A stretch of DNA of 35,940 nt from Bryobacteraceae bacterium (lineage in GTDB: Bacteria > Acidobacteriota > Terriglobia > Bryobacterales > Bryobacteraceae): the NCBI GenBank assembly GCA_049590695.1, contig JBAWDI010000025.1, forward strand, positions 1 through 35,940. Reading direction: 5' to 3'. Under the pieces are notes generated by a model. That model did no database searches, was not told where the DNA came from, and saw only the letters and a program-made list of their open reading frames with translations. Both the position numbers and the translations under genes were made by a program. Below, piece after piece: positions 6,226 through 21,871 of the stretch (its first letter is position 1; every line of letters begins with the position of its first letter).

Positions 6226-9207
6226 TCAAAACGTCTGTCCTATCGAGAAGAAGTATTGAAAATGGCTCACGCCCTGCACCACGCATTGGCTGGCGGCGCC
6301 GGCGCAGGGGTTCACGCCCGCGTTGATCAGGTCCTGCAGGGTTCCTTTGAAGCCAAAGAAGTGCGGCGGATTAATGCTGTATGCCAAGTCGACGCGGATG
6401 GGGCCGACGGGCGTGCGGTAGCGGATTCCGAAGCCTACGGCGTGGACCATGTAATCGAAATCCTGAAGGTTGCGCTGGCGCACGCGGAAGGAAAGATCGC
6501 CGAGGCTGGAATAGGCGTTTCCGGCGTCGTGAAACAGGACGCCGCCGATATTGTCGCCGACCAGCGGGAAGCGCAGCTCGGTCTGGTTGAAGAAGACCGC
6601 CGTGCCCCCTAGCGGGAAGCCGGTCACCGGGTCGCGAGGTCCGGCCTGGTTTTCCGGGAAGCCGCGGTTTGAAGTGCCGCCGCCGCCGAAAAAGCGCTCC
6701 GGCAGGGGGATGGCTGCGAGCACGTCGCCGCTGTAGCGGAACGCGTAGATGTCGCCGAATTCCGTGCTGCGCGCCAGCACCAGCTTCTTGCCCAGGGGAT
6801 GGTAGGTCGCATTGCGCGCCAGAAAGCGCAGGAAGTCGCGCTGCGAACCGACGACGTGCTCGGCCAGCCCCACGTCCAGTGTGGTGTAGATGCCTTTATG
6901 CGGGTCCACGGGGTCGTCGCGGCGGTCCTGGATGAAGCCGCCGGCGATCAGGCCCAGACGCACCGGCTGCGAAAGAAGGGGGATCAGAAACGGGGTGATC
7001 TTGAGAGTTGCCTGGTCGACGCTGACCCGCCGGTAAGTGTAGCGATAGAACAAGGTGGTGGCTTTGGAGAAGCGCTGCGACAATTGCGCCGAGCCTTCCT
7101 CGCGCTTATAGGAAAAAGTGCGGATGTCGTTCTCATCTTCATAGAGGCCGGTGAACGAGACGTTGAAACGGTCCTGGCTGTGGAAGTGCGGCCAGGTGTA
7201 GGTGAGCAGGGCGCGGCGTTCCAGTGTGGAAATGCGGGTGCGCAGGCTGATGCTGTGGGCCAGGCCCCACAGGTTGGACCGGGTGAAATCGAGCGAGACG
7301 CGCGGGGAGAAGCCGGTCTGGCCGGCGGGCGCGTCGAGGCAGGTGGTGCAGCCGCCGATGCGGGTCAACTGCGCGCCCAGGCCCACCGCGAAAGAGTAGC
7401 GCCGCGCTTCTTCCAATTCATAGAGCACGTACTTGCGGCTGGTCTCGCCGTCGGGATTCTGGATGGCGGTATCGACGCGCGAAAAGACGCCGAGGTCGTA
7501 GAGGCGGCGCTGGGTTTCGGTGATCGCCGTGGGGGAAAGCGGGTCGCCGGGATTCAGATTGAGGTTTCGATAGACCAGGCCGGGGCGCGTGGTCTTGAGC
7601 GCGCCCTGGTTAACGATCACTTCCTTCACGGATTCCTCATTGCCTTCGCCGATGGTGAAACGCAGGTCCACCAGGTTCGGCTTCCCGGCCGGCTTGGAGC
7701 TCCACTCGAAGGTGGCATTGGGGAACCCGTTGTCGAAGTATTGCGCCAGGATGGTATCGCGGTCCACCGCCACGTTGAATTCGCTGAAAGGCTGGTCCTG
7801 GGTGCAGTTGAGCATTTTCAGGATGGCCGCCTGGTCCAAGCTCCGGATGCCCTCGACCTCCAGGTGATTGACGAAGTACTGCGGCCCTTCGTCGATGGTG
7901 AGAGAGACCGCCATATCGCCGGCCTGGCCGCGGTAGTTGTCCTCCAGCCGGTCGGTCACCCGCACGTCGCGAAAGCCGTTCGACTGGTACAGATTTACGA
8001 TGGAATCCTCATCGCGGCTGAGGAGGCTCTCGCTATAGCGCCCGTGCGGAAACTGGAGGAACGAGGCCTTCTGGAGGAACATGCGCTCGCGAATGGTTTC
8101 CGTGTCGAAGTACCGGTTGCCGCGGATTTCGATGGCTACCAGCTTGTGGCGCTCGCCGGTGGAGACCACGTAATCGATGGAGGACTTATCGTTGACGACG
8201 CCCTGCTCCTTGAACTCGACCTCGGCGTTGAAGTAGCCGTCCGACTGGAAATAATCGCGCAGGTTGCGTGCGCCTTCGACCAGCAGGTCGTGATCCACGG
8301 CGTGTTCCTCGAAGACCGGAACCAAGCGCCGCAGCTTTCTTTGGGAGACCTTGGCGCCGGTGGTGCGGACCTCGATGCGCGGCCCCGCCTCGATGTGGAT
8401 GGTGGGAAGGGCGCTGTTGGTCCCGGCGTCGTACTTGAGGGAATCCAGCGCGACCTTGGCTTCCAGGCGGTCCTCCTGGTCATACAGCGCGCGGACCCCA
8501 GCGATGCCCTCGATCACGCGCGTCTGGGTGACGGGCTTCCAGGTGTGGATGATCCAGCGGCGGAATTTGGTGGCGCCGGCGATCTTTCCAGGATCCATTT
8601 TCAACTCGCCGGTCAGAACAGGTGGAGCGAAATGCGCACGCTTCCCGCTGTCGACTTCGAAGCGGAGATTCACCTGCTGGTGGGCGCGGTCGTAATCCAA
8701 CTCCGGGTGGATGCCCCTCCCGTAAAGGCCGTTGCTTTCGAGCAGCCGTTGCTGGCCGGCCACGGCCTCCTGGAGTTTGGCATCGGTGTAAGGCTGGCCG
8801 AGATCGAGCCGCGTGGCGTTCTCCAGTTGCCCGGGATTCGGATTGGACAGGCTGCCCACCGCCGACACACTGCCGATGAACCAACTGTTCTTGGTGAGGA
8901 AGCGGACGATGACACCGTTCTGGTAGGGCTCGGCATCCACCTGGATATCGGCGTACCTTCCGGTGGCAAACAGCCGCTCGATGGAGTCGCGGACGGAGGC
9001 CATGCTGAGCGGCTGGTGGATTTTGAGCGGCAGGATTTCGTACAGCTCGGAGGGGTCCAAAGGCTGCTCGACCGGATCGAACTGAATGGTGAGCACTTCC
9101 TTGCCGTCATACTTCTGGTATTGCGCCAGGAGAGAGCAGGGCTGCGCAGCCGCCAGACAGACAACCAGGCAAGAAAAGTTGGCGAGCAGCGATCGCACCA
9201 AGTTCAT
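6226..9207 (-). CDS. bamA: Outer membrane protein assembly factor BamA (Omp85 family, multiple POTRA domains plus C-terminal beta-barrel)
   Basis: The 993-aa ORF has a signal peptide (MNLVRSLLANFSCLVVCLAAAQP). It contains repeated POTRA-like units such as VLTIQFDP..., IEIRGNRYF and VEGIRSLD. The C-terminal barrel carries RGFPENQAGPRD, a GGT..FFNQTELRFPL motif and a terminal aromatic residue (..IGQTF). Confidence 0.9.
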   Translation of the reverse strand: MNLVRSLLANFSCLVVCLAAAQPCSLLAQYQKYDGKEVLTIQFDPVEQPLDPSELYEILPLKIHQPLSMASVRDSIERLFATGRYADIQVDAEPYQNGVIVRFLTKNSWFIGSVSAVGSLSNPNPGQLENATRLDLGQPYTDAKLQEAVAGQQRLLESNGLYGRGIHPELDYDRAHQQVNLRFEVDSGKRAHFAPPVLTGELKMDPGKIAGATKFRRWIIHTWKPVTQTRVIEGIAGVRALYDQEDRLEAKVALDSLKYDAGTNSALPTIHIEAGPRIEVRTTGAKVSQRKLRRLVPVFEEHAVDHDLLVEGARNLRDYFQSDGYFNAEVEFKEQGVVNDKSSIDYVVSTGERHKLVAIEIRGNRYFDTETIRERMFLQKASFLQFPHGRYSESLLSRDEDSIVNLYQSNGFRDVRVTDRLEDNYRGQAGDMAVSLTIDEGPQYFVNHLEVEGIRSLDQAAILKMLNCTQDQPFSEFNVAVDRDTILAQYFDNGFPNATFEWSSKPAGKPNLVDLRFTIGEGNEESVKEVIVNQGALKTTRPGLVYRNLNLNPGDPLSPTAITETQRRLYDLGVFSRVDTAIQNPDGETSRKYVLYELEEARRYSFAVGLGAQLTRIGGCTTCLDAPAGQTGFSPRVSLDFTRSNLWGLAHSISLRTRISTLERRALLTYTWPHFHSQDRFNVSFTGLYEDENDIRTFSYKREEGSAQLSQRFSKATTLFYRYTYRRVSVDQATLKITPFLIPLLSQPVRLGLIAGGFIQDRRDDPVDPHKGIYTTLDVGLAEHVVGSQRDFLRFLARNATYHPLGKKLVLARSTEFGDIYAFRYSGDVLAAIPLPERFFGGGGTSNRGFPENQAGPRDPVTGFPLGGTAVFFNQTELRFPLVGDNIGGVLFHDAGNAYSSLGDLSFRVRQRNLQDFDYMVHAVGFGIRYRTPVGPIRVDLAYSINPPHFFGFKGTLQDLINAGVNPCAGAASQCVVQGVSHFQYFFSIGQTF

Positions 9208-9250
9208 GATACCGTAAGTCGTTCATAGCGACTTTGTTACCATCGGATTG

Positions 9251-10270
9251 ATGGACGCGGCAGAGCGCCAGCGCTATTCCCGGCAAATCCTGTTTCCAGG
9301 CATCGGGGAACGGGGACAGGAGGCCCTGCTGCGGTCGCACGCGGTGGTGGTGGGCTGCGGCGCGCTGGGGAGTTTTCACGTTGCGGCGCTGGCCCGGGCG
9401 GGGGTGGGCACGCTCACCATCGTCGATCGCGATTACGTGGAGCCGAGCAACCTGCATCGCCAGTGGCTGTTCGAGGAATCCGACGCCGCCGAGTCGCTTC
9501 CCAAGGCCGCGGCCGCCGAGCGGCATGTCGCGCGTATCAATTCCAGCGTTCACGCGCGCGGCGTGGTGGCGGACCTCACGCCCTCGAACGTGGCGGAGTT
9601 GCTGGGCGGCGCGGACCTCATTCTGGACGGCACCGACAACTTTGAAACGCGGTACCTGATCAACGATTTCGCCGTGAGCCGCGGCGTTCCGTGGATCTAC
9701 GGAGCGGCCGTGGGCAGTTACGGCCTGACCATGCCGGTGATTCCGGGACGCACAGCGTGCCTGCGCTGCGTCTATCCCGAACCGCCCGCGGGCGTCCAGC
9801 CAACGTGCGAGACCGCTGGAGTGTTGAACGCGATTATCTCGGCGGTGGCGTCGCTCCAGGTGGCGGATGCGCTGAAGATTCTCTCCGGCAATGCCGGCCT
9901 GGTGCGCGCGCGCCTCACCACGATTGACGTATGGGACGGAGACATCCGGCAGATCGAAGGCCCGCGGATGGACCCGGAATGCCCCGCGTGCGCCCGCCGC
10001 GAATTCCCCTACCTGGAAGAATCGCCCCGCCCGCCGGCGAGCCTGTGCGGCCGGAACGCGGTGCAGATCCACGAGCGCGAGCGGCCGATTGACCTGGCGG
10101 CATTGAAAGCGCGTCTGGAGCCGCTGGGCGAAGTCCGCGCCAACGAATTTGCGCTGAGGTTTTTGGTTGCGCCGTACGAGATGACGGTGTTCCCCGACGG
10201 CCGCGCGATCGTCAAGGGCACCAGCGACACCGGCGTGGCGCGGAGTTTGTACGCGCGGTATGTGGGGTGA
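9251..10270 (+). CDS. ThiF/MoeB/HesA-family E1-like adenylyltransferase
   Basis: It opens with RYSRQILFPGIGERGQEALLRSHAVVVGCGALGS, a Rossmann GxGxxG motif, followed by IVDRDYVEPSNLHRQ. Two CxxC pairs are present (CLRC and CPAC). The ATG at 9251 is preferred over the TTG at 9248. Confidence 0.85.
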   Translation: MDAAERQRYSRQILFPGIGERGQEALLRSHAVVVGCGALGSFHVAALARAGVGTLTIVDRDYVEPSNLHRQWLFEESDAAESLPKAAAAERHVARINSSVHARGVVADLTPSNVAELLGGADLILDGTDNFETRYLINDFAVSRGVPWIYGAAVGSYGLTMPVIPGRTACLRCVYPEPPAGVQPTCETAGVLNAIISAVASLQVADALKILSGNAGLVRARLTTIDVWDGDIRQIEGPRMDPECPACARREFPYLEESPRPPASLCGRNAVQIHERERPIDLAALKARLEPLGEVRANEFALRFLVAPYEMTVFPDGRAIVKGTSDTGVARSLYARYVG

Positions 10271-10279
10271 GTTGAGATT
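9937..10279 (+). repeat. Left copy of a ~340-bp direct repeat (3' end of the thiF-like gene), putative attL-side homology
   Basis: It aligns by hand, without indels, to 16757-17061 plus 17347-17393. I count about 28 substitutions over about 330 nt. Confidence 0.85.
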
Positions 10280-10480
10280 AATTTTCAATTGTGACGTACT
10301 GCGCAAACTGCTACCCTATAGCTTCCGGCAAGGGATCGCCGAAGGAATGCATGCGTCTGTAACCGACTGCAGGAGGCATTCCCGACCTGGTGCCCATCGC
10401 CAACCGGGAAGGCCGAATCCATCTGCGAGGAAGACGGTCGCCTTGAGTCGGGTACCAGCGAGGAACGGCACCTCGACCCT

Positions 10481-11827
10481 ATGATCACGTTTGTCCATCT
10501 CTCGGATATCCACTTCTCCCCGCGGGACGATCTTTCGCAGTTTGACCTCGACCGACAGATCCGACGGGCCTTGCTAGAAGATCTCGAACGCAGACCCGCC
10601 GATGGCGCCGGCTACGATGGACTGCTCATCACCGGCGACATCGCCTTCGCCGGGAAACATGAGGAGTACCAGCGCGCCCAGGTATGGCTTGATGAGGTCT
10701 TTACCAGGACTGGTGCGTCAGCGGCTAGTACTTATGTGGTTCCGGGCAATCACGACGTGGACCGGGCATACGTTGAGCCGGAGTTCCCTCTCTGGGACTC
10801 GCATGTTCGGCTGCGCGAGGCTGCTGACCCAGTTGTTTGGCGCGATATCATAGCGAAGCAACTCCAGCGCGATCCACTGCACACTATGCTTGCCCCACTC
10901 AGGGGCTATAATGATTTCGCCCAGGGGTACGAGTGCCGAACAGAGCCAGGTAGGCTGGCGTGGTGGCGGACTTTTTGGAAAGCGCTTGACGACGGTCGGC
11001 CTGTTCGTCTGCACGGGCTGAATTCGGCGTTGGTTTCCGATGCGGCGGACGCTCCGGGCAAGTTGCTGGTATCCGAGTTTCAAACCTCGCATTTTGAACA
11101 TTCGGGTGGTGTCGTAGACGTGGTATTGTGCCATCATCCACCGGAGTGGCTTCTGGATAAAGGGGCGCTCCGCAACGCGCTACGGACTTTTGTCCCGGTG
11201 GTGCTATTCGGCCACGAACACAGCGCACGCATCGCCGCAGATGTGAAGCAGGTCCAGCTTTTTGCCGGAGCGGTTCAGCCCTCGCGACGCGATCCAGAAT
11301 GGCTGCCAACGTATCACATCGTGCAGCTTATCGTGGAGGGAGCCAATGCTCATCCCGAGTTGATCGTGCGGACGCACACCCGCGAATTTGACAAGCAGAA
11401 CTACCAGTTCCGCTCCCGGCGCAACGAGGACGACGAGCCAGTGGATATACGCCGCGTCAACATCCCGGCATGGACGCCGCCCGTCGCAAAGGCTATAATT
11501 CCCATAGTGGCTGGCCCTGCTTCTGAGTTTTGTTCCGCACCGGTGAACGACAAGCCGTCTTCCGAACCGCCGATGCCCACGCCAAAGGAAACCGCGCAGC
11601 GCGAATTGCTGGTCCAGTTCTTCCGTCTCAGGACCCCTGACCGCTATACTGCCGCCAACGAAGCGGGTTTGCTGCGCGATGGCGATGACGCGCTCAACCC
11701 CCAGACGATGTGGGCGGAGGTTTTTCGCCGTGCGACGGAAGAGCCGCACGGTCTTGCGAGGTTCTGGACCGCCGTCGCCTCCAGAACCCCAACGTTGAAG
11801 GATAGCCCGAATCCGTTTGTTACCTAA
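10481..11827 (+). CDS. Calcineurin-like metallophosphoesterase with a Pro/Ser-rich linker and C-terminal helical tail (candidate effector of the island operon)
   Basis: The ordered metallophosphoesterase motifs are LSDIHF (DxH), ITGDIAF (GD), VPGNHDV (GNHD), LCHHPPEW (H) and LFGHEHS (GHxH). A linker (PVNDKPSSEPPMPTPKE) precedes a tail of about 80 aa that looks helical. Confidence 0.85.
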   Translation: MITFVHLSDIHFSPRDDLSQFDLDRQIRRALLEDLERRPADGAGYDGLLITGDIAFAGKHEEYQRAQVWLDEVFTRTGASAASTYVVPGNHDVDRAYVEPEFPLWDSHVRLREAADPVVWRDIIAKQLQRDPLHTMLAPLRGYNDFAQGYECRTEPGRLAWWRTFWKALDDGRPVRLHGLNSALVSDAADAPGKLLVSEFQTSHFEHSGGVVDVVLCHHPPEWLLDKGALRNALRTFVPVVLFGHEHSARIAADVKQVQLFAGAVQPSRRDPEWLPTYHIVQLIVEGANAHPELIVRTHTREFDKQNYQFRSRRNEDDEPVDIRRVNIPAWTPPVAKAIIPIVAGPASEFCSAPVNDKPSSEPPMPTPKETAQRELLVQFFRLRTPDRYTAANEAGLLRDGDDALNPQTMWAEVFRRATEEPHGLARFWTAVASRTPTLKDSPNPFVT

Positions 11828-11833
11828 GAGATT

Positions 11834-12790
11834 ATGCACCCACACTTGATCGATTGGTTTCGTAACGTCAACATCCACTCAGATCCGATACTGGTTGAGC
11901 GCCGATGGCAGACGGCGGAGGAGTATTCGAGAGCACTCTCACGGTCGTCGATACCACGGTTGCTGCGCCTGTTCCTTTTTCCAAAACCAGAGACCACCGA
12001 GAACGCATGGTTTACCGACGGGTTGCTCACGTTGGATAAGGAGTTCCCCGTGGCAAACAACGCGGAACAATTGCGCCTTATGGCGGGTGTGGTAATGGTC
12101 ACTACGTTCGATGAAGGGTCGGCGGAGGGCTGCGCCTTCGCCCTTGGGTTGCGGGCCGCTGTCTTTCCCAAGAGATCTACGCTGCCAGCACAACCGGAAA
12201 TTCTTGCGGCGGCGGAAGCGTATCTGCAAGCCGAGGCTGAACGGCAACGACCCACGTACTTCGGCGACGCGCCTGAGAGCCGGCTAGCTGAACAGATCCG
12301 GCGACTAGCTGAGGAAACCGGGCTTCTGTGGTGGGTGATCAGCGAGTACAGCACTTCATTGAGACGCCGCACATCCGGGCTGACGGCACCGGCCTACGCG
12401 TTGATTGCGGCGGCAGAGGCTGCGGACCGCACGCAAATACTGCCGCCGCCGCCCTCCGCAGATGCACTACTCGCTCGCGTGCTCAAACCGTGCAAGAGCG
12501 GCCCGAAGAAGGCCCACACCCTGATCGATTTCTGGACCGCAGCCGATGCCGGCTGGCGGGCAGGGCTGCTGCGGAGCATCGATGCTTCCGAGGGCCGCGA
12601 TTTCGTGCCAATTATCACTGGGCTCGCCAAGTGCGAAGAGTTCGGCGAAGCGGTAGGCGCAGCGAGAGTGGTGCCGAAACTCTGCCCCGGCGTGAGCATT
12701 GAGCATCCTCTGTCGCCTGCGGAAGCCGCTCAGCAGCTCTACGTCGAGTTGATGTTTCTGAAGGCGCTGGGTGCCTTAGAGAAGAGCTGA
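11834..12790 (+). CDS. Hypothetical protein (318 aa) that looks all-helical from composition, second gene of the island operon
   Basis: It starts 6 nt after the upstream stop. Coding-like composition runs throughout. It is Ala/Leu/Glu-rich with no catalytic motif that I can recognise. Confidence 0.7.
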   Translation: MHPHLIDWFRNVNIHSDPILVERRWQTAEEYSRALSRSSIPRLLRLFLFPKPETTENAWFTDGLLTLDKEFPVANNAEQLRLMAGVVMVTTFDEGSAEGCAFALGLRAAVFPKRSTLPAQPEILAAAEAYLQAEAERQRPTYFGDAPESRLAEQIRRLAEETGLLWWVISEYSTSLRRRTSGLTAPAYALIAAAEAADRTQILPPPPSADALLARVLKPCKSGPKKAHTLIDFWTAADAGWRAGLLRSIDASEGRDFVPIITGLAKCEEFGEAVGAARVVPKLCPGVSIEHPLSPAEAAQQLYVELMFLKALGALEKS

Positions 12791-12795
12791 TCCCC

Positions 12796-13818
12796 ATGGC
12801 GCGCTGCAAGTTGAGGGATTGCACGATTGCGATAGACGGCCGGTGTTTAGAAGGCCGAGGGAACGAGTGTCCGAATCGTTTGGCTGATGAGTTTTCAGAC
12901 GCGACCGCAACCCAACTGGCCGATTCCTTCAGAGGTTCCGAATCGATGGCTCGCCAATATGCGCCAACTGAGGCGCTCTATTCGGGCCTTCCGCTGGAGA
13001 TCGCTGAAGCAAGGGAGCTTTCCGGACGTGCGCGGGCCATGGTCGTTTCACTGACGGGCATGTCGGAAAGTGGGAAAACCTCGCTTCTCGCACGCCTGCA
13101 TCAGATGTTCCAGACTGGCCCGGTTGGTGGGTACGACTTCGCCGGGAGCCGTACGCTGCCGCGCTTGGAGGAATTGAATTGGCTAGCGACCGTCGAGAGC
13201 GGGGTTGGAACACCGACCATGGAGAAATCATCGCGTCGATTTGACAACAGCTTTCTGCATTTCACGGTCCGGCGGCATCCCGATGGTGGTGATCCCGTAG
13301 ACGTACTGTTGAATGACATTTCGGGCGAGACCTATCCGGAGGCGATCACAGCAGAGAGTGTGTGCACGCAGCTCCTCTGCCTGCGGCGGGCAGACCATCT
13401 GGCCCTGGTTGTAGATGGCGAAGCGATTGCCGATCGCGACCGTCGGCACGACCACTGCGCAAAGGCGAAGAACTTTGTTCAGCGCGTCCTGCAGACAGGG
13501 CAGGCCGGCAACCAGACGGTAGTGCATCTCATCGTTTCAAAACTGGATGTGCTTAACAGGGAGGACCGTAAGACGGAGAACCTCGAAGCTACTGCAAGGC
13601 TTGAAACCGATTTTGTGGCCCAGTTTGAGCCTCGCGTGGCCAGGATTCACCTCTGGCGGCTGGCCGCGCGCCCGCTTGATGGCTCGATGCCAACCGAGGA
13701 AACCGTGGCCAAGCTTTTCGCAACATGGGTCGAAACCACTTATCGATACACGAATACTGATGCGCGCAGTCCCGCTTCAATTGAGCACGCCCGGGACTTC
13801 TGCCGCTTCGGTGCGTAG
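12796..13818 (+). CDS. P-loop GTPase-like protein 1 with an N-terminal Cys cluster
   Basis: G1/Walker A is GMSESGKTS, G3 is LLNDISGE (DxxG), and the G4-like motif is IVSKLD (an NKxD variant). The N-terminus reads CKLRDCTIAIDGRCLEGRGNECPN, with four Cys. It starts 5 nt after the upstream stop. Confidence 0.8.
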   Translation: MARCKLRDCTIAIDGRCLEGRGNECPNRLADEFSDATATQLADSFRGSESMARQYAPTEALYSGLPLEIAEARELSGRARAMVVSLTGMSESGKTSLLARLHQMFQTGPVGGYDFAGSRTLPRLEELNWLATVESGVGTPTMEKSSRRFDNSFLHFTVRRHPDGGDPVDVLLNDISGETYPEAITAESVCTQLLCLRRADHLALVVDGEAIADRDRRHDHCAKAKNFVQRVLQTGQAGNQTVVHLIVSKLDVLNREDRKTENLEATARLETDFVAQFEPRVARIHLWRLAARPLDGSMPTEETVAKLFATWVETTYRYTNTDARSPASIEHARDFCRFGA

Positions 13819-13832
13819 GCTGTAACTCGACT

Positions 13833-14675
13833 ATGGATGAGAACGAACACCAACTGCTCGTCGTCGGTTTGCCTGAAACAGGCAAGACGTCTTTTATTCA
13901 CGCGGTGGATGACCTACTGCAAAGTCCCCCAACACCCGAGGCTCTGCGCAGCTACGGGCTGGCTGGAGACCGAAGCTATCTTGAACGTGACAAGAGAAGT
14001 TTTCGCGCTGGCAAGAAGCTCGTGCACACCGAGCGTAGCCTTCAAGAGGCGGCGCCGGAACTGTGGTTTGAAGATCCCAGAACCGGGCGTAGAGGTCGGC
14101 TCTTTCTCCCTGATCTCAGAGGAGAGATTTTCCAAGACCAATGGACTGACCGGCGGTGGACGGAGTCCTTTCGCGATGATCTCGAGGCCATTAGCGGGGC
14201 GCTGGTCTTTGTGCGAGCCGACACCCCGGCGTCCAATCAAGAGCTGTTGGGACAGATGCTGGAATGGGCGCAGAAGAACGTCAAGCCAGCGCCATGGGAC
14301 CTAAAGAAAGCAAGCCCGCAGGTGCAGCTCGTAGACGTACTCCAGTTTATTGGTACGAAGGCAGAGATCTCGCGCCCGCTGAGGGTTGCGGTGTTGATTT
14401 CCGCGTGGGATACGGTAGGGAAACCGGGCAATCGCCAGCCCAAGGATCCCCGGGCGTTCCTAGCCAGGGAATGGCCGCTGCTGGACCAGTACCTCCGCTC
14501 CAACGCCGAGACCTTTGTCAGGAAGGTTTACGGCGTGAGTGCGCTCGGCGGGACGGAGGAGGAATTGAAGGAGCTGAGTAGGGTGCCTCCGCAGGATCGC
14601 GTGAACCTCGTCGAGGACACGCAATCATCCAAAGACCTGACCCGCCCGCTGCGGTGGTTGCTGAAGCTGGACTAA
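13833..14675 (+). CDS. P-loop GTPase-like protein 2
   Basis: G1/Walker A is GLPETGKTS, G3 is LPDLRGE (DxxG), and the G4-like motif is VLISAWD. It starts 14 nt after the upstream stop. It is clearly divergent from the preceding GTPase-like protein. Confidence 0.8.
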   Translation: MDENEHQLLVVGLPETGKTSFIHAVDDLLQSPPTPEALRSYGLAGDRSYLERDKRSFRAGKKLVHTERSLQEAAPELWFEDPRTGRRGRLFLPDLRGEIFQDQWTDRRWTESFRDDLEAISGALVFVRADTPASNQELLGQMLEWAQKNVKPAPWDLKKASPQVQLVDVLQFIGTKAEISRPLRVAVLISAWDTVGKPGNRQPKDPRAFLAREWPLLDQYLRSNAETFVRKVYGVSALGGTEEELKELSRVPPQDRVNLVEDTQSSKDLTRPLRWLLKLD

Positions 14676-14687
14676 CGCGTTCTCGAT

Positions 14688-16742
14688 ATGCGCGTCGCGT
14701 TCACATTCCATCAAGCACTCTTTGGCTACGACGGCGGTCACCATCTGCTGAGCGCTTCCCTGCAAATGCCTCCCGAAGTGCGGCATTTTCTGGCGGTGGC
14801 CACCGACCTTTCGGGCTCGGCACCTGCAGAGGGCTTCGACACCGCTTACACTGGGCTGCCGCTGGGCGAAACAAATTATTATGCACTCTTTTGCACCTGG
14901 CTTGCGCCAGAGATGCGACGCCCCGGCTGCGTGTGGAGCCATGTCTTGCTCATAGAGTTGGCAGACCTTGCGGAACTACCGGACCTCGGCGCACTTCGCC
15001 GCGCCTTTCGCCGGCCAGTCTCCCCGAATCTGGACGAGTATCGCACCAAGGTTAACTTCCAACCGCAAGGCGCAACACCACCAAGGCTTTCGAGCGCGGT
15101 GACGGCGGATGCGGGCAAGATGCTCGCAGGGCTCTACCTCGCCCCGAAACGGCCGATCGTGTTCCCGACGAACGCGTCGTCGAAGGCGGAGAGTTTGGTG
15201 TTTGCCTTGTGGTCCCAGCAGTGGCCACGATTGCGTCGGAACTTCCGCTTTTCCACCGGCTCCTTCGCAGACCGCGGTCGGAGTGGCGATTCTTTCGATT
15301 TGCAGGTGTCGCCCGAAGTGAACCGTCGAGCTTGGCAGCGCCAAGGTGAATACCTGCTCGTCGATAGCACAACCGCAACTGATGCTGCACTAACGGGTAA
15401 GGCGCCGTCTTGGATGTGCGCGGCACTTAATGACCTGCTTGCTCCGGACGTTGGCGGCTTCCGCTCATTTCTGTGCGCGTATGGAACCGATGTAAATGAT
15501 CCACGCAGCGCATTCGCCCGGTTGGCATTTGCCTACGACCGCGTGGTACTCCGCCCAAACAGCGATTGGATGGAAACGCTCCGTTCCGTTGGTGAGACGT
15601 TCTCGGACCCATCGGAGGCAATTCTTCTCAAGGAGTGGTTAGTGAGTCCTCGCGAGCTCCCCGAATCTGAGGAGGAGTTAAAGCGCAATTTGGCTACGAC
15701 TTCTTTCCTGCTGGATGCCGATGGCGCAAAGCCATACGCAGGGGCATCGCACGGGTTCTCCAGGCTCGCGCGAGGCCTCTGGCCAATGGGGGAAAAGCGG
15801 GTTCTTTCGATGTTGGCAGAGTTGGTTCGTCAGCAGGAACGACCGTGTGCATCCGCTTTCGCTGCAGCGGTGGCCAGCGCCGCCCAACCAAGTGATCTGA
15901 GGGTAATTTCGGAGGAGAGGCCAGAGCTGATACCCCTCTTCCTTCTGCATCGCCCGGAGCTCGCCTTCCACGTTGAAGCTTGGCGGCTGCCAGCGAACAC
16001 ACAATGGCGCATTCATGAGGTTCTCGACGGATTGTCACTAGATGCTAAGGACTGGGGAGAAATCATGGTTGCCATGCTCGTTGCTACGACGAGAATAGCC
16101 GTGCGTGACGTTGTGGAAAAGGCAGGCCCCTATGCGATCGAAGGTGCTTTCCGTTGGCTCGACAATAAGATTGCTCAAGAACGCCTCCCACCAGATCTCT
16201 GGCGGGAGGCTCTTGCGCCACCCGCTGCCGACCGCCTTCAGAATGCAGAATTGTCGTCGCCCGCGACTCTGGCCCTCTGCGCATGGTTTCTCCGACCTGA
16301 GGTCGCGCGCCAGGTACTCAGTGCGTCCCGTGAAGACGTGGTGCAATTGGCGCGGCAGCCCATTCAGGAGCTTCCGCCACCGCTACGTTTGTATACGGCG
16401 TTCTTGTTGGTCACACTCGGATTACGTGCCGGTGACCTTGGGGGCGCGGCACTCGTAGCGCGGGGATTTTTCCGTGTTCATGACGCGCTCGCATCTAACG
16501 ATTATTCTTCGGACTCGTGGCGGCTCCTGTGTCCAGAGCTGCCTTATCTGGGGCGCTGGAAGGAGTGGGACCGATGTGAAAAACTGCGGCGGGCCGTGCG
16601 AATGCGATTATCTCCTCACATAAAGCTGATATCCGAGATGTTGCTCGCAGCCGCAGTCAGCCCGGAACATCGCGAGATCGTTCGCCTAATTGGGGCGGGG
16701 TCTTCACCGCCGGCGAGCGATCTTGACGCCAGTCTGTTGTAG
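14688..16742 (+). CDS. Large hypothetical protein (684 aa), fifth gene of the island operon
   Basis: It starts 12 nt after the upstream stop and is an uninterrupted 684-codon ORF with coding-like composition. The N-terminal block reads FHQALFGYDGGHHLLSASLQ...RRPGCVWSHVLLI. I cannot assign any catalytic motif. Confidence 0.75.
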   Translation: MRVAFTFHQALFGYDGGHHLLSASLQMPPEVRHFLAVATDLSGSAPAEGFDTAYTGLPLGETNYYALFCTWLAPEMRRPGCVWSHVLLIELADLAELPDLGALRRAFRRPVSPNLDEYRTKVNFQPQGATPPRLSSAVTADAGKMLAGLYLAPKRPIVFPTNASSKAESLVFALWSQQWPRLRRNFRFSTGSFADRGRSGDSFDLQVSPEVNRRAWQRQGEYLLVDSTTATDAALTGKAPSWMCAALNDLLAPDVGGFRSFLCAYGTDVNDPRSAFARLAFAYDRVVLRPNSDWMETLRSVGETFSDPSEAILLKEWLVSPRELPESEEELKRNLATTSFLLDADGAKPYAGASHGFSRLARGLWPMGEKRVLSMLAELVRQQERPCASAFAAAVASAAQPSDLRVISEERPELIPLFLLHRPELAFHVEAWRLPANTQWRIHEVLDGLSLDAKDWGEIMVAMLVATTRIAVRDVVEKAGPYAIEGAFRWLDNKIAQERLPPDLWREALAPPAADRLQNAELSSPATLALCAWFLRPEVARQVLSASREDVVQLARQPIQELPPPLRLYTAFLLVTLGLRAGDLGGAALVARGFFRVHDALASNDYSSDSWRLLCPELPYLGRWKEWDRCEKLRRAVRMRLSPHIKLISEMLLAAAVSPEHREIVRLIGAGSSPPASDLDASLL

Positions 16743-16756
16743 GTGCACGGCCTCGC

Positions 16757-17393
16757 CGGAGGCATCCGGCAGATCGAAGGACCTGCGAGGGATTCGGAAT
16801 GTCCCACGTGCGCCCGCCGCGAGTTTCCCTACCTGGAAGAATCGCCCCGCCCGCCGGCCACCCTGTGCGGCCGGAACGCGGTACAGATCCACGAGCGCGA
16901 GCGCCCCATCGACCTGGCGGCGTTGAAAGCGCGTCTGGAGCCGCTGGGCGAAGTCCGCGCCAACGAATTCGCGCTGCGGTTCTTCGTGGCACCCTACGAG
17001 ATGACGGTGTTCCCCGATGGCCGCGCGATCGTCAAGGGGACCAGCGACACCGGCGTGGCGCGGGTGTGCGACATAAAAGTGACGTCCCCAGGTGAAGCTC
17101 CGCAGGAGCGAAAGACAGTAGCCCATGGCGCGAGCCGTGGGAGAATTGCGAAATCGACCTAGCCCCGGAGGGGGCGAAAGAACGTTCTTCCGCCCCCTGC
17201 GGGGCTACCCCGGTTGCTCACCAGTCCCATGGCTTGCGCCATGGGCTACTGTCTTTCGCCCTGACGGGCTTTGAGTACCGGCTACGCCTAGATTCCTGCG
17301 ATCCGCTGCGGAATCGGAGAATCCGCCACTTTTATGTCGCACACCCGCGTGGCGCGGAGTTTGTACGCACGGTATGTGGGGTGAGGTAAGATT
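16757..17393 (+). pseudogene. Displaced 3' fragment of a thiF-like gene (right copy of the direct repeat), interrupted by a MITE
   Basis: It encodes ..GIRQIEGPARDSECPTCARREFPYLEESPRPPATLCGRNAVQIHERERPIDLAALKARLEPLGEVRANEFALRFFVAPYEMTVFPDGRAIVKGTSDTGVAR. The MITE follows, then SLYARYVG-stop. It has no N-terminal two-thirds and no start context. The track ORF 16743-17162 is read-through of this fragment into the MITE. Confidence 0.85.
17062..17346. mobile_element. MITE-like non-autonomous element (~285 bp) with 20-bp perfect terminal inverted repeats and a 9-11 bp target-site duplication
   Basis: The left TIR is GGGTGTGCGACATAAAAGTG (17062-17081). The right TIR is CACTTTTATGTCGCACACCC (17327-17346). 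The flanking duplication is GCGTGGCGC(GG), at 17053-17061/63 and 17347-17355/57. The uninterrupted left repeat copy carries that sequence only once. An internal perfect 24-bp inverted repeat lies at 17108-17131 and 17236-17259, with a central imperfect hairpin at 17163-17204. The element has no coding capacity. Confidence 0.85.
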
Positions 17394-17398
17394 CAGGT

Positions 17399-17605
17399 AT
17401 GAAGCTTCTCGTCACCCTGGACCCGGATGAGACCGGCATGATTGTCGCCGAGTGTCCAGCCATCCCGGGGTGCGTTTCGCAAGGGCGGACGGAACTCGAG
17501 GCCCTGGAGAACATCCGGGAAGCGATCATCGGTTGTCTCGAAGCGCGGTTGGCCAATAATATGCCTCTGACGGTCGCAGTCCGCGAGGTCGAGGTTCCCG
17601 TCTGA
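17399..17605 (+). CDS. hicB: HicB-family antitoxin (UPF0150 fold)
   Basis: The 68-aa product reads ..DPDETGMIVAECPAIPGCVSQGRTELEALENIREAI.., which is typical of the HicB N-terminal domain. Its stop overlaps the hicA start by 1 nt (TGATG). Confidence 0.8.
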   Translation: MKLLVTLDPDETGMIVAECPAIPGCVSQGRTELEALENIREAIIGCLEARLANNMPLTVAVREVEVPV

Positions 17606-17826
17606 TGGCGGCGCTGCCCTCCGTTTCCGGAGAGCAAGCTGTCCGAGCATTTCAAAAGGCAGGGTGGGGCAAAGACCGGCAGCACGGGAGCCACGTCATC
17701 CTGATCAAGCCGGGGCATCCGGCGAGTTTGTCCATACCCCAACATCGTGAAGTGGCTCCCGGCACGCTGCGATCTTTGATACGGGCCTCGGGAATGACTG
17801 TCGCGCAATTCGTGGAGCTGCTCTGA
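17605..17826 (+). CDS. hicA: HicA-family mRNA interferase toxin
   Basis: The 73-aa product contains GEQAVRAFQKAGWGKDRQHGSHVILIKPG, a YcfA/HicA motif with the conserved GSH histidine. Confidence 0.8.
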   Translation: MAALPSVSGEQAVRAFQKAGWGKDRQHGSHVILIKPGHPASLSIPQHREVAPGTLRSLIRASGMTVAQFVELL

Positions 17827-17874
17827 GTGCTCCGGGGCATACACATGGGGAATCTAATCGTCCGCCCCACACCG

Positions 17875-18711
17875 CTATCTTCGCCACGCCGCGATGTGCA
17901 GGCCGGGCGGAAGCTGGGCGTGGGATACGTCCAAGTCGTCCTTGGTTAGCGGGATGCTTGCCTCCACCGTGTTGGGGGCGTCCGGGTAGTTGTGGCTGAA
18001 GGCGATCTTGAGACGGCGCGCGGGGGTTTCAATGAAGGCGACCTGCTGCGTCTCGTCCGCAAAGGAACGCATCTGCCGCGCCTCCGCCGGCTGGTCGTGG
18101 GTGATGAGGGCTTCGCGCAGGACGCGATCTTCCGCGGCGTAGACCAGCACGGCCACCACGTGTGGGTCTTTGAGGCGCGCGTCGGGGGTGTCGTCGGCCG
18201 GCACGTCCAGACCGGCGTATCTGGGGGTGCCGTCGGCCCTCGATACCTGGAAGCGGACCAGCTCCACATGCGTGTCGAAGAGATGGCGGCCGTCGCCCAG
18301 GCGGTAAATGGACCACATCGGCACGTCGACGTAGCCGCGATCGATCACCCAGAGGCAATTGTCGAGGGTGCGAGCGGAATCGGCTGGGAGCTTCACAGAG
18401 TAGAGAGGCTTCTGCTTCGGATCGGCGCCCAGCGGCCACGCTTCCAGCGTCAAGGCGCCCGGCTCGGGTATGTCGCCGACGAAGTCTTTCGCGTGCGTGG
18501 TGGTGCGCAGCAGGAGGCGCTCATCGGCGGGGCGGCCGGGTACGCCGGTTCCGGTGTATTGCCAGGCTACGTTATGGATCTCCACGGTTTCGCCCTCGGC
18601 TGCGACGGTATAGGAAACAGTGGAGGCGGATTGCGCCTGAAAGGGGATCTTGGCCAGGGCCAGCAGCAGCGAGGCGCAGACCGCGGCGGCGGGCAGCAGT
18701 TTCTTCAACAT
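17875..18711 (-). CDS. Secreted hypothetical protein
   Basis: The track ORF runs to 19068, but its N-terminal 110 aa are Arg/Phe-rich junk. The ATG at 18711 gives MLKKLLPAAAVCASLLLALAKIPFQAQS, a signal peptide. An alternative ATG lies at 18738. Confidence 0.65.
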   Translation of the reverse strand: MLKKLLPAAAVCASLLLALAKIPFQAQSASTVSYTVAAEGETVEIHNVAWQYTGTGVPGRPADERLLLRTTTHAKDFVGDIPEPGALTLEAWPLGADPKQKPLYSVKLPADSARTLDNCLWVIDRGYVDVPMWSIYRLGDGRHLFDTHVELVRFQVSRADGTPRYAGLDVPADDTPDARLKDPHVVAVLVYAAEDRVLREALITHDQPAEARQMRSFADETQQVAFIETPARRLKIAFSHNYPDAPNTVEASIPLTKDDLDVSHAQLPPGLHIAAWRR

Positions 18712-19003
18712 GCTCCCAGGGTCGCACGTCGCGCTCATGAGCGAAGTGCCTCCGCGTTGAAAACGGAAGCGTGTTTTTCGACGCGGAGCCGCTGAGACGC
18801 GGAGAAAAAAGCAGAGAGGAAGAAAGAAGAATAGAGTCAAAACCTGAGAGCGCAGTCTTCGAGCAAATGGAACGTTGTCAAAAGGCCTCGCTGCGCCAGC
18901 CTCCATTATCTCCGCTTCCTCCGCGGCTCCGCGTCGAAAGAAGATGCCGGGTCGCGGAGCGAAGCGCCGCGACAAAAACGGGCAAGCTAAAGCATGCCCC
19001 ACC

Positions 19004-21145
19004 TCACTGCCGCTCGAGTTCATCGAGAAGCATCGACAGGCGCGGCGCCACTTCGGTGCGGCGGCCAAAACGCAGAGCGTTGTACTTGCCGGTGAACTCC
19101 GTCACGGCTGTCCCCAGTTGGCCGGGCGGCAGCGATTCGGAGAACTCCGCGGGCGTGAACCACGCGGGCTTCTGGTAACCGCGGCGTTTCAACAGGTCGA
19201 GCATGCGCTCGTACAGCAGGGTGGCGTCCGCCACCGTGTCCTGGCCGCGGCGGACGCGCTCCACGCGGCTGCGGATGCGCAGCAGGCGAACCAGCCGCGG
19301 CCCGAGCACCCAGATGGCGACTCCCAGCGCCAGCACAATCGGGATGCCTGGGCCATAGCGCCGGAACCACGCCGCCGCGCGGAGACGCCAATTCCAGTCC
19401 AGTCCGGAAAGGGAGTCGAACCAACGGATGCCCATGCTGCGCGCACCCTGTTCCAAGCGGTCGGCCAGCGTGCCCTGCCGGCTGATGTCGTAGCTTACCA
19501 CCCACTCCCGCCAGAAGGTCCCGGCGGCATCCAGGTACAACCCGAGTTGCGACAGCAGGGCGAAGCTACGGCGGTTGGGATCGGGCGGCGTGGGATCGAA
19601 GGTGGTCCAACCACGGCCGGGAATCCAGGCCTCCACCCAGGCGTGCGCGTCGGAGGCGCGCACCAGCCAGAAATCCGTGATGGGGTTGTACACGCCGCTT
19701 TGGAAGCCCGTGGCGAGGCGCGCGGGGATGCCGGCAGTCCGGAGCATCACCGTCATGGCGGAGGCGAAGTATTCGCAGTGGCCCCGCTTGCGCGTGAAGA
19801 GGAAGTAAGCCAGCGGATCGGCGACTTCATGGTCCGGAAGTTCGAGCGTATAGCCGTAATCGGCGCGCAGCCGGCGCTCGATGGCGCGCGCCCGCTCCAG
19901 GTCCGTCGCCGGGCCCATGGGGCACCCCGCCGTCATGGCGCGCGCCAGCTCGGGAATGCGCGGGTCGAGCGGCGGCAGTTGCAGATAATCGCTTCGCGCC
20001 CGGAGCGGCAGAATGGGCTCGGGGTACGGGGCCGGCGAAGTCTCCGGCGGATCTTCGAGCCGGCTGTAGGCGTCGTAGTGGACGCCCTGGGGCGACTGGT
20101 ACCCGAGCCGGTAATTTCCGGTCGCCGTCCGCAAGAGAAATGGATAGCGCAGGTCCACCATCTCGGGCACCCCGGCGAAAAAGAGCGCGTCGGTGCCGAA
20201 AGCGTCCAGATCGACGTGGTAGTTGATGTGCCGCCCCGGCCGGCGGCCGGCGGCCGGCTCCAGGTTGGCGTGGCCGTTTTCCACCGGGATCGCCTGGTAC
20301 GCCCGGCCGGGCTCGGACCACCGCTTCCCATCGAATTCGGCGAGCGCCCGGCCACGCCATTTCAGGCCGCCAGGCGTTTCGCTGCTGAAGATGCGGATGT
20401 GCATGACCGGCCGGGAGGCGGTGCGGATCTCGCCGAACTCGCCGAGCGTCACCTCGCTCGAGAAACCGGGAAGATAGAAACGATGCGAGATCAGGCGGGA
20501 GAACGCCGCCTCGGCGGTGCGCGGCAGGAGAAAGAACAGCCCGGCGGCGATGGACAGGATTCCCAAAGTCATCAATGCCGAATGTAGCGCCAGGCGGGGG
20601 TAGAAGCGCTTCAGCCCGCTGCGCGCCGTGACCGCGGCCTGGCGCGTGGAGCGGCGAATCTCTCCGCTGGTGAGCGCCGCTATGGCACACAGCAGGTAGA
20701 GCGCCAGAAACAGGAAGAAGTTGACATCGATGGACAGGAGGGCGGCAGCCAAAAGCTCCACAAAGGCAATGGCGGCGGTGTAAAGATAATCCCGATTGGT
20801 TTTCGCCGTGAGGATTTTCATCACAGCCAGGAAAAACACCAGGTGGACAGTGGCGGTGAGAAACTCCCGCGAAAGGAGGAAATAATCGAGCGCGAAGAAG
20901 CCGGTATAGCCGAGGGTGACGATGGTTACGGTGCGATCGGACAGGTCCAGCCGCACGAACCCGCGGATGACCAGGCCGCGAAGCACCAGGCCGGCGGCGG
21001 TGAGCGCGATGGTCGCGGTATCCAGGTACCCCGAGCCGGCCACCGCGAGATATCCGCTGGCCACCAGGCCCAGCAGCGAAAACTGGAAAAAACGCTCGAC
21101 GGAGGGGCGCCCTCTGGGCCACGCGCTCGCATGCGAACGCAGCAT
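19004..21145 (-). CDS. Transglutaminase-domain membrane protein (TgpA-like, DUF3488 N-terminal region plus transglutaminase core)
   Basis: The N-terminal half has multiple transmembrane segments. The core reads RKRGHCEYFASAMTVMLRTAGIPARLATGF...SDAHAWVEAWIPGRGWTTFDPTP, supplying the Cys-His-Asp transglutaminase motif. Confidence 0.85.
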   Translation of the reverse strand: MLRSHASAWPRGRPSVERFFQFSLLGLVASGYLAVAGSGYLDTATIALTAAGLVLRGLVIRGFVRLDLSDRTVTIVTLGYTGFFALDYFLLSREFLTATVHLVFFLAVMKILTAKTNRDYLYTAAIAFVELLAAALLSIDVNFFLFLALYLLCAIAALTSGEIRRSTRQAAVTARSGLKRFYPRLALHSALMTLGILSIAAGLFFLLPRTAEAAFSRLISHRFYLPGFSSEVTLGEFGEIRTASRPVMHIRIFSSETPGGLKWRGRALAEFDGKRWSEPGRAYQAIPVENGHANLEPAAGRRPGRHINYHVDLDAFGTDALFFAGVPEMVDLRYPFLLRTATGNYRLGYQSPQGVHYDAYSRLEDPPETSPAPYPEPILPLRARSDYLQLPPLDPRIPELARAMTAGCPMGPATDLERARAIERRLRADYGYTLELPDHEVADPLAYFLFTRKRGHCEYFASAMTVMLRTAGIPARLATGFQSGVYNPITDFWLVRASDAHAWVEAWIPGRGWTTFDPTPPDPNRRSFALLSQLGLYLDAAGTFWREWVVSYDISRQGTLADRLEQGARSMGIRWFDSLSGLDWNWRLRAAAWFRRYGPGIPIVLALGVAIWVLGPRLVRLLRIRSRVERVRRGQDTVADATLLYERMLDLLKRRGYQKPAWFTPAEFSESLPPGQLGTAVTEFTGKYNALRFGRRTEVAPRLSMLLDELERQ

Positions 21146-21172
21146 GGTCCTATTCTATCAGCGGAGGTTTGA

Positions 21173-21820
21173 TTACCGCTGGCCTTCGACTTCGAAACCG
21201 AACTCCCGAAGCAGTTTTCCGGGGGGCCAATAGACGCGCACGAAGTAGATCCCCGGCTGCGTTCGCGGAACCTTGAAGCCGGCTTTCGACCCGTGTGCCG
21301 GCACAGTGGCCTGCCAGACACGGCTGCCGAAGCGATCCACCATTTCCAGCCGGTAGCGGGAAGCGGCCGGCAAATTCGCCAGGTCCAGCCGCAGCAGCAG
21401 CCATCTGCCGGCCGGCGCTTTGGCTTCGACAGCGGCGCCGCGCGTGGCTTCCAGGTCGATTGCAAACGGGTGCGCCTCGCCCGTATCCACGCGGCCGAGC
21501 CATAAACCGGCCGCCACGACCACCACCGCCAAGCCAGCCAGGGCAGGGACCAGGCGGGGAAAACGCAGCCAGGGGAGTCCGCGTTTGAGAGGCCCCATGC
21601 GCAGACGCGCGGCGGCCTGTCGCATGGCGCCAACGTAGGCGTCGGTCTGCGCCAGCCGCAGTTGGCAGGGTTCGCAGATCAAGAGATGTTCTTCAAAGGG
21701 GGCGATGGCCGCTTCCGGCATCGCCCCCATGGAGTACCGCTCGATCTCCTCGTCGTGCAGGTGACAGTTGGCGTACATGTCCAGCACCGTATTGTGGATT
21801 AGTTGCTCTCTGAAAGACAA
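21173..21820 (-). CDS. Anti-sigma factor (zf-HC2 type) with one transmembrane segment and an extracytoplasmic domain
   Basis: HLLICEPCQ is the Hx3Cx2C zinc motif. It is followed by the transmembrane segment LVPALAGLAVVVVAAGLWL. The gene lies directly downstream of the ECF sigma gene. Confidence 0.75.
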   Translation of the reverse strand: MSFREQLIHNTVLDMYANCHLHDEEIERYSMGAMPEAAIAPFEEHLLICEPCQLRLAQTDAYVGAMRQAAARLRMGPLKRGLPWLRFPRLVPALAGLAVVVVAAGLWLGRVDTGEAHPFAIDLEATRGAAVEAKAPAGRWLLLRLDLANLPAASRYRLEMVDRFGSRVWQATVPAHGSKAGFKVPRTQPGIYFVRVYWPPGKLLREFGFEVEGQR

Positions 21821-21871
21821 GGTGTATCGGAGGTGGCGAAACTCTCAACAATTCCGGGGGGAACTTATGCC

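Follow-up and report, generated by a model that had tools for sequence, protein, structure and literature searches.

A GAP1-N1-type double-GTPase operon, a probable conflict system, on an integrated island of a Bryobacteraceae bacterium

DO-GTPase ("double-GTPase") systems were predicted computationally by Kaur, Burroughs, Iyer and Aravind (eLife 2020, PMC7159879), and their role in conflict or defence is a prediction in that paper. The definition of the GAP1-N1 subtype calls for a pair of DO-GTPase genes, of which one encodes an N-terminal zinc ribbon, together with a Walker-B glutamate, a downstream GAP1 and GASH, and GAP1 itself is built of three regions, N, M and C (PMC7159879). The effector is variable: it may be fused to GAP1 or attached via EAD1 or GAAD, with calcineurin-type phosphoesterases being the commonest choice and GAAD a frequent one (PMC7159879). 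Here we describe an operon of this kind from a Bryobacteraceae bacterium (assembly GCA_049590695.1, contig JBAWDI010000025.1, forward strand). The whole stretch of DNA that we analysed, 35,940 nt, is called the window below.

A second set of described systems is relevant to the effector. DS-8 is a metallophosphatase-NACHT protein, and DS-9 combines a metallophosphatase with a HAD (DefensePredictor, Science 2026, PMC13092281). DS-8 and DS-9A were validated against phage, and their catalytic mutants lost defence; no substrate is assigned to either (PMC13092281).

We conclude, with a probability of about 0.7, that the window operon is a complete, intact GAP1-N1-type DO-GTPase conflict system carried by a small integrated island, with a mechanism that we infer. 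The operon has every defining component of the system of Kaur et al., in an identical architecture, and the distribution is mobile and patchy in both. It differs in that its host phylum, Acidobacteriota, lies outside those listed as commonest (proteobacteria, bacteroidetes and spirochaetes), and in that our model suggests a fold for GAP1, namely a longin unit, a DENN core and a helical region. A preliminary description of the window, made from the sequence alone, had likened the operon to the "double-GTPase" systems of the Aravind group and had kept open the alternative of something new. The comparison was right and the alternative is unsupported: this is a textbook family member, of a known, computationally defined kind of system rather than a new kind.

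The five genes and their products

The operon consists of five genes on one strand:

10481-11827, plus strand: gene 1, 448 aa, effector, a metallophosphoesterase with a GAAD tail
11834-12790, plus strand: gene 2, 318 aa, GASH, all-helical
12796-13818, plus strand: gene 3, 340 aa, DO-GTPase2 with an N-terminal zinc ribbon
13833-14675, plus strand: gene 4, 280 aa, DO-GTPase1
14688-16742, plus strand: gene 5, 684 aa, GAP1 with a GAP1-N1 domain

The listing of open reading frames (ORFs) agrees with the tight, same-strand packing first described, with spacings of 6, 5, 14 and 12 nt. In a Pfam search, the five proteins fell in families made for GTPase-centric conflict systems, and not in housekeeping families. 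Gene 3 matches PF19993 (DO-GTPase2; 4.5e-38, 131.6 bits), gene 4 matches PF19975 (DO-GTPase1; 3.1e-50, 171.4 bits, over the full model), residues 154-308 of gene 2 match PF19994 (GASH; 1.2e-10, 41.6 bits), and gene 5 matches PF20012 (GAP1-N1; 1.5e-28, 99.5 bits), each against a cut-off of 27 bits. Gene 1 matches Metallophos (5.9e-11, 43.6 bits, cut-off 21.5). GAP1 lies 12 nt downstream of DO-GTPase1 and shows three regions in an AlphaFold2 (AF2) model, as the GAP1-N1 definition asks. No transmembrane-like hydrophobic segment was found in any of the five proteins by a hydrophobicity check. All five thus appear soluble, and the system is therefore taken to be cytoplasmic. A membrane-associated reading was dropped, as no hydrophobic segment reached a transmembrane-like score.

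The two GTPases each carry a full set of motifs. In gene 3 these are Walker A (GMSESGKT, 88-95), Walker B (DISGE, 174-178) and SKLD (248-251), preceded by a four-Cys zinc ribbon predicted from sequence (C4, C9, C17 and C25; nt 12805-12870); among 33 homologues, these Cys residues and the G-motifs either never vary or are kept at a level of at least 90%. Gene 4 has Walker A (GLPETGKT, 12-19), Walker B (PDLRGE, 93-98) and SAWD (190-193), all of them invariant in 32 homologues. Both proteins have the Walker-B glutamate (DxxGE) of the GAP1-N1 definition, whose D, G and E are invariant or at least 90% conserved in these 32-33 homologues. Genes 3 and 4 are paralogous (hhalign probability 98.9%, E 2.7e-17). 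When the PDB was searched by sequence with single proteins and with profiles of both GTPases, we obtained only P-loop-limited or chance matches; the DO-GTPases are a separate TRAFAC family without a close solved relative. We also observed that public gene calls for DO-GTPase2 (window 12796-12945; contigs L081-L085) begin 28-50 codons downstream, giving 290 or 312 aa rather than 340, and that the conserved four-Cys zinc ribbon is therefore lost from them.

In the effector, a calcineurin-like metallophosphoesterase domain (residues 3-279) is followed by a Pro-rich linker of low conservation and then by a GAAD tail (about 373-448; nt 11597-11824), in keeping with the effector-adaptor architecture first suggested for it. 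The motif set noted in the preliminary description is present: SDIHF (D9, H11), GD (D53), GNHD (89-92), HH (218-219) and GHEH (244-247). These metal-ligand motifs are at least 95% conserved among 66 homologues. By sequence, the nearest proteins of solved structure are GpdQ, Rv0805 and Icc-type phosphodiesterases, all of them weak matches (E 0.003-0.2 in a PDB sequence search). Among NCBIfam models, DS8_antiphage recognises the phosphoesterase domain at 1.6e-28 and 99 bits (profile positions 1-232 of 994), far above the score of the generic Pfam model, and DS9_1 does so at 1.1e-15 and 57.5 bits. Gene 1 therefore shares with DS-8 and DS-9 a homologous metallophosphoesterase domain, and in both cases the effector is carried by an NTPase-controlled protein or complex. 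In DS-8 that control is a fused NACHT STAND (signal transduction ATPase with numerous domains) ATPase, whereas here it would lie in a GTPase pair, GAP1 and GASH on separate polypeptides joined via GAAD. We considered gene 1 as a DS-8 or DS-9 orthologue and ruled this out, since its scores fall far short of the full-length equivalog cut-offs (99 vs 790 bits for DS-8 and 57.5 vs 420 for DS-9), and the phosphoesterase domain alone aligns. No NACHT or HAD was found in a Pfam scan of the five proteins. With PADLOC v2, the gene 1 phosphoesterase domain alone resembles PDC-S60, PDC-S10 and a generic effector model.

GASH is usually the most variable component: in most loci, none of the other four proteins has a lower identity to its homologues. 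It is a candidate sensor.

Conservation, mobility and acquisition of the cassette

If the five genes form one functional unit, they should occur together in other genomes. A search for GAP1 relatives, taking one genome per species, gave 80 loci in more than 10 phyla, 70 of which have enough upstream DNA to be assessed. Represented among the 80 loci are Acidobacteriota, Verrucomicrobiota, Planctomycetota, Alpha-, Beta-, Gamma- and Deltaproteobacteria, Bacteroidota, Myxococcota, Gemmatimonadota, Armatimonadota, Chloroflexota, Melainabacteria and candidate phyla radiation lineages. We found that the phosphoesterase, DO-GTPase2, DO-GTPase1 and GAP1 keep their order and strand within 5.5 kb in 67 of the 70. 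A GASH gene was detected by tblastn in 48 of these 67 loci, and the other 19 show a gap of 1.1-2.2 kb between the phosphoesterase and DO-GTPase2 matches, at the place expected for GASH and large enough for it. Metal ligands and G-motifs are also well kept, at 95% conservation or more across 65-75 homologues. Co-occurrence and motif conservation, on which the preliminary description had made its proposal depend, are thus both observed across many phyla. The GAP1 family is moderately large and diverse: of 1.84 billion cluster representatives, 2,234 match at E ≤ 1e-3, and 918 still do so at E ≤ 1e-30.

The three exceptional loci show how the cassette varies and decays. In L036, an alpha/beta-hydrolase fused to a clear GAAD (5e-20) takes the place of the phosphoesterase; this effector swap with GAAD retained is evidence, at the level of sequence, for GAAD as an adaptor. 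L031 holds a 147-aa GAAD-only remnant beside an insertion sequence (IS) integrase gene. In L039, GAP1 stands alone, next to a serine recombinase and a disrupted xanthine-dehydrogenase gene.

Two further observations concern the make-up of individual cassettes. In a Pirellulaceae metagenome-assembled genome (L172, 5773-7110), the effector gene is broken into two ORFs, one for a phosphoesterase of 273 aa and one of 86 aa with GAAD only, which could be a frameshift or a natural two-piece version. In L001, L004, L009 and L013 the phosphoesterase and DO-GTPase1 are nearer to the window proteins than GAP1 is, while in L002, L006-L008 and L010 GAP1 is the component most similar to that of the window. 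These incongruent identity patterns hint that recombination may have taken place between GAP1 and the other cassette genes.

The cassette occurs elsewhere in mobile contexts of several kinds. One cassette lies inside an integrative and conjugative element (ICE), next to TrwC, a coupling protein, VirB8 and TrbL; the Pirellulaceae cassette sits between two tyrosine integrase genes; another Bryobacteraceae genome has the cassette beside relaxase, primase and replication genes; and in Terriglobus albidus it is found beside an RHS/EndoU toxin. We found GAP1 relatives on 28 plasmids (22 conjugative, 5 mobilizable). On the K. pneumoniae IncF conjugative plasmid NZ_CP060051.1 (L090) the five genes, at positions 17733-23853 of that record, have ccdAB on one side and an Abi-family gene with a TrlF-family ATPase on the other, and on a pAsa9-like conjugative plasmid of Aeromonas salmonicida (L091) they lie between two recombinase genes. 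RefSeq labels the genes of these two cassettes only as "metallophosphoesterase", "GASH" and three hypothetical proteins. The hosts of both plasmids are clinically and veterinary relevant. We found no GAP1 relative in 50,697 phage records, and no match to the DNA of the Klebsiella cassette in E. coli complete genomes.

In the window, the cassette lies in an island adjoining a ThiF/MoeB-like gene, with these features:

9248-10270: ThiF/MoeB-like gene, intact, adjoining the island
9937-10279, plus strand: left direct repeat, comprising the ThiF 3' end and 9 nt past the stop codon
10280-10480, plus strand: leader, 201 nt between the left repeat and gene 1, where the promoter is expected
16757-17062 and 17341-17393 (span 16757-17393), plus strand: right direct repeat, a displaced, non-functional ThiF 3' end, split by a MITE-like element
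17059-17349: element resembling a miniature inverted-repeat transposable element (MITE), with 26-nt terminal inverted repeats and an internal 76-nt palindrome
17096-17141, minus strand: Rfam Acido-Lenti-1 match inside the MITE-like element (41.8 bits, gathering score 37)
17399-17605, plus strand: hicB
17605-17826, plus strand: hicA (Pfam HicB_lk_antitox and HicA_toxin on the identical contig L081)

The history of this site can be read from a metagenome contig of a close relative, L093, which is colinear with window 8520-10266 and 17877-20220 at 92-94% DNA identity and has 88 nt between the two segments. Because L093 carries just these 88 nt at that site, window 10267-17876 is an insertion, which takes in the leader and the five genes as well as the duplicated end of ThiF, the MITE and hicBA. 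The cassette was likewise absent from all 80 of 80 ThiF-linked metagenome loci. The claim of a horizontally acquired island next to a MITE and a hicBA pair is thus upheld: both elements are real, and a related contig lacks them together with the cassette. The GC content of the island (0.58-0.61) is slightly below that of its flanks (0.62-0.69).

The flanking direct repeats, of about 343 nt, are imperfect, the copies being 90.8% identical over 306 nt. The single ThiF copy of the relative is 93.1% identical to copy 1 and 94.1% to copy 2, with discriminating sites splitting 12 to 15. By these values neither ThiF 3' copy stands out as the native one. Since the two copies are 90.8% alike while each is 93-94% identical to the relative, one of them came from a different lineage rather than from a recent duplication in situ. 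This suggests that the island arose by Campbell-type integration of a circular element carrying a foreign ThiF 3' fragment. The ORF listing and the annotation of the identical contig L081 show no integrase or other mobility gene in the island, and an exact-protein look-up with the ThiF-like protein gave no match.

Some details of the island and its surroundings complete the description. In leader 10280-10480 no promoter was identified, as sigma-70 and terminator scan counts were not above shuffled expectation, and a Rfam scan matched no family there. The terminal inverted repeat of the MITE-like element occurs in the window at just the two places that bound the element, and the Acido-Lenti-1 "sRNA" motif may be part of a mobile repeat. 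The hicB-hicA pair begins 6 nt past the right repeat and is likewise missing at the empty site of the relative, so that it is a small module, either separate or acquired along with the cassette, outside the five-gene system. At about 21872-24945 on the minus strand, the annotation of L081 shows a CHAT (caspase-like) and tetratricopeptide repeat (TPR) protein downstream of a sigma-70 region-4 gene, resembling the extracytoplasmic function (ECF) type, and a small ORF, a possible conflict or signalling module.

The predicted fold of GAP1

The paper of Kaur et al. gives no fold for GAP1 and makes no mention of DENN, longin or Roadblock (PMC7159879). A 2012 survey of DENN modules by the same group describes no bacterial homologue of the DENN module, tracing the longin domain alone to prokaryotic MglB-like Roadblock GTPase-activating proteins (GAPs) (PMC3521125).

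Our AF2 model of full-length GAP1, based on a 110-sequence alignment, has a predicted local distance difference test score (pLDDT) of 92.2 and a predicted template modelling score (pTM) of 0.83. In the model, residues 5-106 (nt 14700-15005), which correspond to GAP1-N1, adopt a longin-like beta-beta-alpha-beta-beta-beta-alpha-alpha arrangement; residues about 120-217 (nt 15045-15338) form a five-stranded alpha/beta domain like a DENN core; and residues about 242-670 make up a long, all-helical C-terminal region. A Foldseek search with full-length GAP1 gave weak ARM/HEAT-like matches to the helical C-terminal part only (best E 0.03). Because such matches dominated that search, the N-terminal 240 residues were modelled apart (pLDDT 85, pTM 0.87). 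Searched against the PDB, this part found as its best match the DENN domain of DENND1B bound to Rab35 (3tw8_A, E 3.3e-4, probability 1.0), with further matches to C9orf72 (7mge_C, 6lt0_C), to FNIP2/FLCN in the Rag-Ragulator complex (6ulg_N, 8dhb) and to the Lst4 longin domain (4zy8). The type VI secretion protein TagF (9t0n) matched it as well (probability 0.96, TM-score 0.49). Taken together, the models suggest that the N-terminal 240 residues of GAP1 probably form a longin plus DENN-core module.

In FLCN, NPRL2 and other longin-domain GAPs, the longin domain supplies an arginine finger. In GAP1, R78-P79-G80 is invariant, and the model places it in the loop joining the last two longin strands. 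On this structural prediction R78 is a candidate arginine finger.

What GAP1 would have in common with the eukaryotic longin-DENN regulators (DENND1B-Rab35, FLCN-FNIP2 with RagA/C, and C9orf72-SMCR8) and with bacterial TagF is the predicted fold of residues 1-240: a longin unit, a five-stranded alpha/beta domain and helices. Its genetic coupling to a pair of paralogous GTPases also recalls the Rag heterodimer with its longin-DENN GAP. It differs from all of these in that no sequence-level similarity was detected, and from the eukaryotic regulators in that its role would be in conflict rather than in membrane traffic; the resemblance may reflect homology or convergence. We tentatively raise the idea, to which we give somewhat less than even odds, that GAP1 is a genuine bacterial longin-DENN regulator, acting as a GAP or a guanine nucleotide exchange factor (GEF) on a heterodimer of paralogous GTPases and licensing an immune effector. 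Such a protein would be the prokaryotic equivalent of switches of the Rag-FLCN/FNIP and C9orf72-SMCR8 type, and might be related to them.

Function, rival explanations and significance

How might such a system work? We propose that the GTPases of genes 3 and 4 pair as a heterodimeric nucleotide switch, on which GAP1 would dock via its longin and DENN-like module, probably setting the GTP/GDP state as a GAP or GEF. The helical C-terminal region of GAP1 may serve as a scaffold that holds the metallophosphoesterase through GAAD. GASH, the zinc ribbon of DO-GTPase2, or both could sense an invader-derived cue, and the changed state of the GTPases would then release or activate the phosphoesterase. 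That enzyme, whose domain belongs to the same family as in DS-8 and DS-9A, is putatively a nucleotide or nucleic-acid phosphodiesterase that would halt the infected cell or the invading element.

Several points weigh against this reading. In agreement with the preliminary description, which knew of no experimental characterisation, our literature searches found no experimental study of any DO-GTPase/GAP1 system; the defence function and every mechanistic step are for that reason inferred. PADLOC v2 (PADLOC-DB v2.0.0) has no model for genes 2-5 and gave no match for them at E ≤ 1, and NCBIfam gave no match for these four genes either. Among the profile searches proposed at the outset, that with Pfam bears out the family, and PADLOC v2 lacks this system. 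The structure predictions are of single chains, and the contacts within the putative GTPase heterodimer, between GAP1 and the GTPases and between GAAD and GAP1 are postulated. The likeness of GAP1 to DENN is at the level of fold only, with Foldseek TM-scores of 0.42-0.49 for residues 1-240, and a Pfam scan of GAP1 gave no DENN, longin or TagF match at E ≤ 1. No substrate is assigned to the phosphoesterase, as is the case for DS-8. The nearest neighbour in the window is the hicBA pair only, and the locus is not within a rich defence island. Finally, the GAAD tail of gene 1 scores 18.3-22.0 bits (22.0 for the tail alone), under the Pfam gathering cut-off of 23.6, and pairwise BLAST of this tail against clear GAAD proteins was unsuccessful. 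We accept it as GAAD because all 17 of 17 aligned homologous tails, each scanned against Pfam, match that family (best 5.6e-14).

These considerations raise the question of whether the cassette serves something other than host defence. It could be an addiction or inter-element competition module that stabilises its carrier element or excludes rivals of that element, rather than protecting the host from phage. The conjugative and mobilizable plasmids that carry it, the copy within an ICE next to relaxase and type IV secretion system (T4SS) genes, the neighbouring ccdAB on the Klebsiella plasmid and hicBA in the window, and the lack of any copy in the phage records would all suit such a role. 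Defence systems are also typical cargo of such elements, however, and the cassette has Abi and TrlF-family genes among its neighbours. Its effector domain is common to validated anti-phage proteins, and a regulated switch of five proteins is far more elaborate than known addiction modules. We therefore consider this explanation unlikely, though it is the strongest of the rivals. Less likely again is that the operon is a physiological signalling module, in which the GTPase pair and its regulator control a cyclic-nucleotide or phosphodiester hydrolase in host regulation. The identity of the nearest solved phosphoesterase relatives, weak as those matches are, would suit that role, as would the fact that eukaryotic DENN and longin modules regulate housekeeping GTPases; against it stand an extremely patchy distribution across phyla in which the structure of the cassette stays constant, the missing cassette at the same site in a relative about 93% identical and in every ThiF-linked locus, the replacement of the effector by an unrelated hydrolase on the same GAAD adaptor, and contexts that are mobile elements.

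A different kind of doubt concerns the window copy itself, which could be an inactive relic of a decayed mobile element. The island is without an integrase or other mobility gene, a MITE has inserted in its flanking repeat, and decayed relatives are known (the lone GAP1 of L039, the truncated effector of L031 and the split effector gene of L172). Since the five ORFs are full length and tightly spaced, with every conserved motif kept, and identical protein sequences were found on six independent contigs, we think it very improbable that the operon is dead. All three of these explanations are less well supported than a conflict system, the reading that we prefer. Family membership, conservation, mobility and effector modularity are direct observations of the present analysis.

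Beyond the description of Kaur et al., this analysis offers proof of acquisition from an empty site, evidence from an effector swap that GAAD acts as an adaptor, plasmid homologues that are tractable and a predicted DENN-like GAP1. The locus provides a clean natural with/without pair, in which the cassette can be compared with the empty site of a relative about 93% identical, and the homologue on the conjugative Klebsiella IncF plasmid is tractable. Because E. coli complete genomes hold no match to the Klebsiella cassette, E. coli pangenome screens could not have sampled such copies, which is the likely reason why DO-GTPase/GAP1 systems were missed. The longin-DENN hypothesis, with R78 as the candidate finger, is a concrete and testable structural proposal for GAP1. 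If it is true, DENN-type GTPase regulation would be an ancient invention of conflict systems rather than a eukaryotic one. If the conflict role is confirmed, the family would represent a GTPase-switch immune mechanism distinct from defence of the STAND/NLR (nucleotide-binding leucine-rich repeat) type, and would bear on the origin of eukaryotic GTPase regulators.

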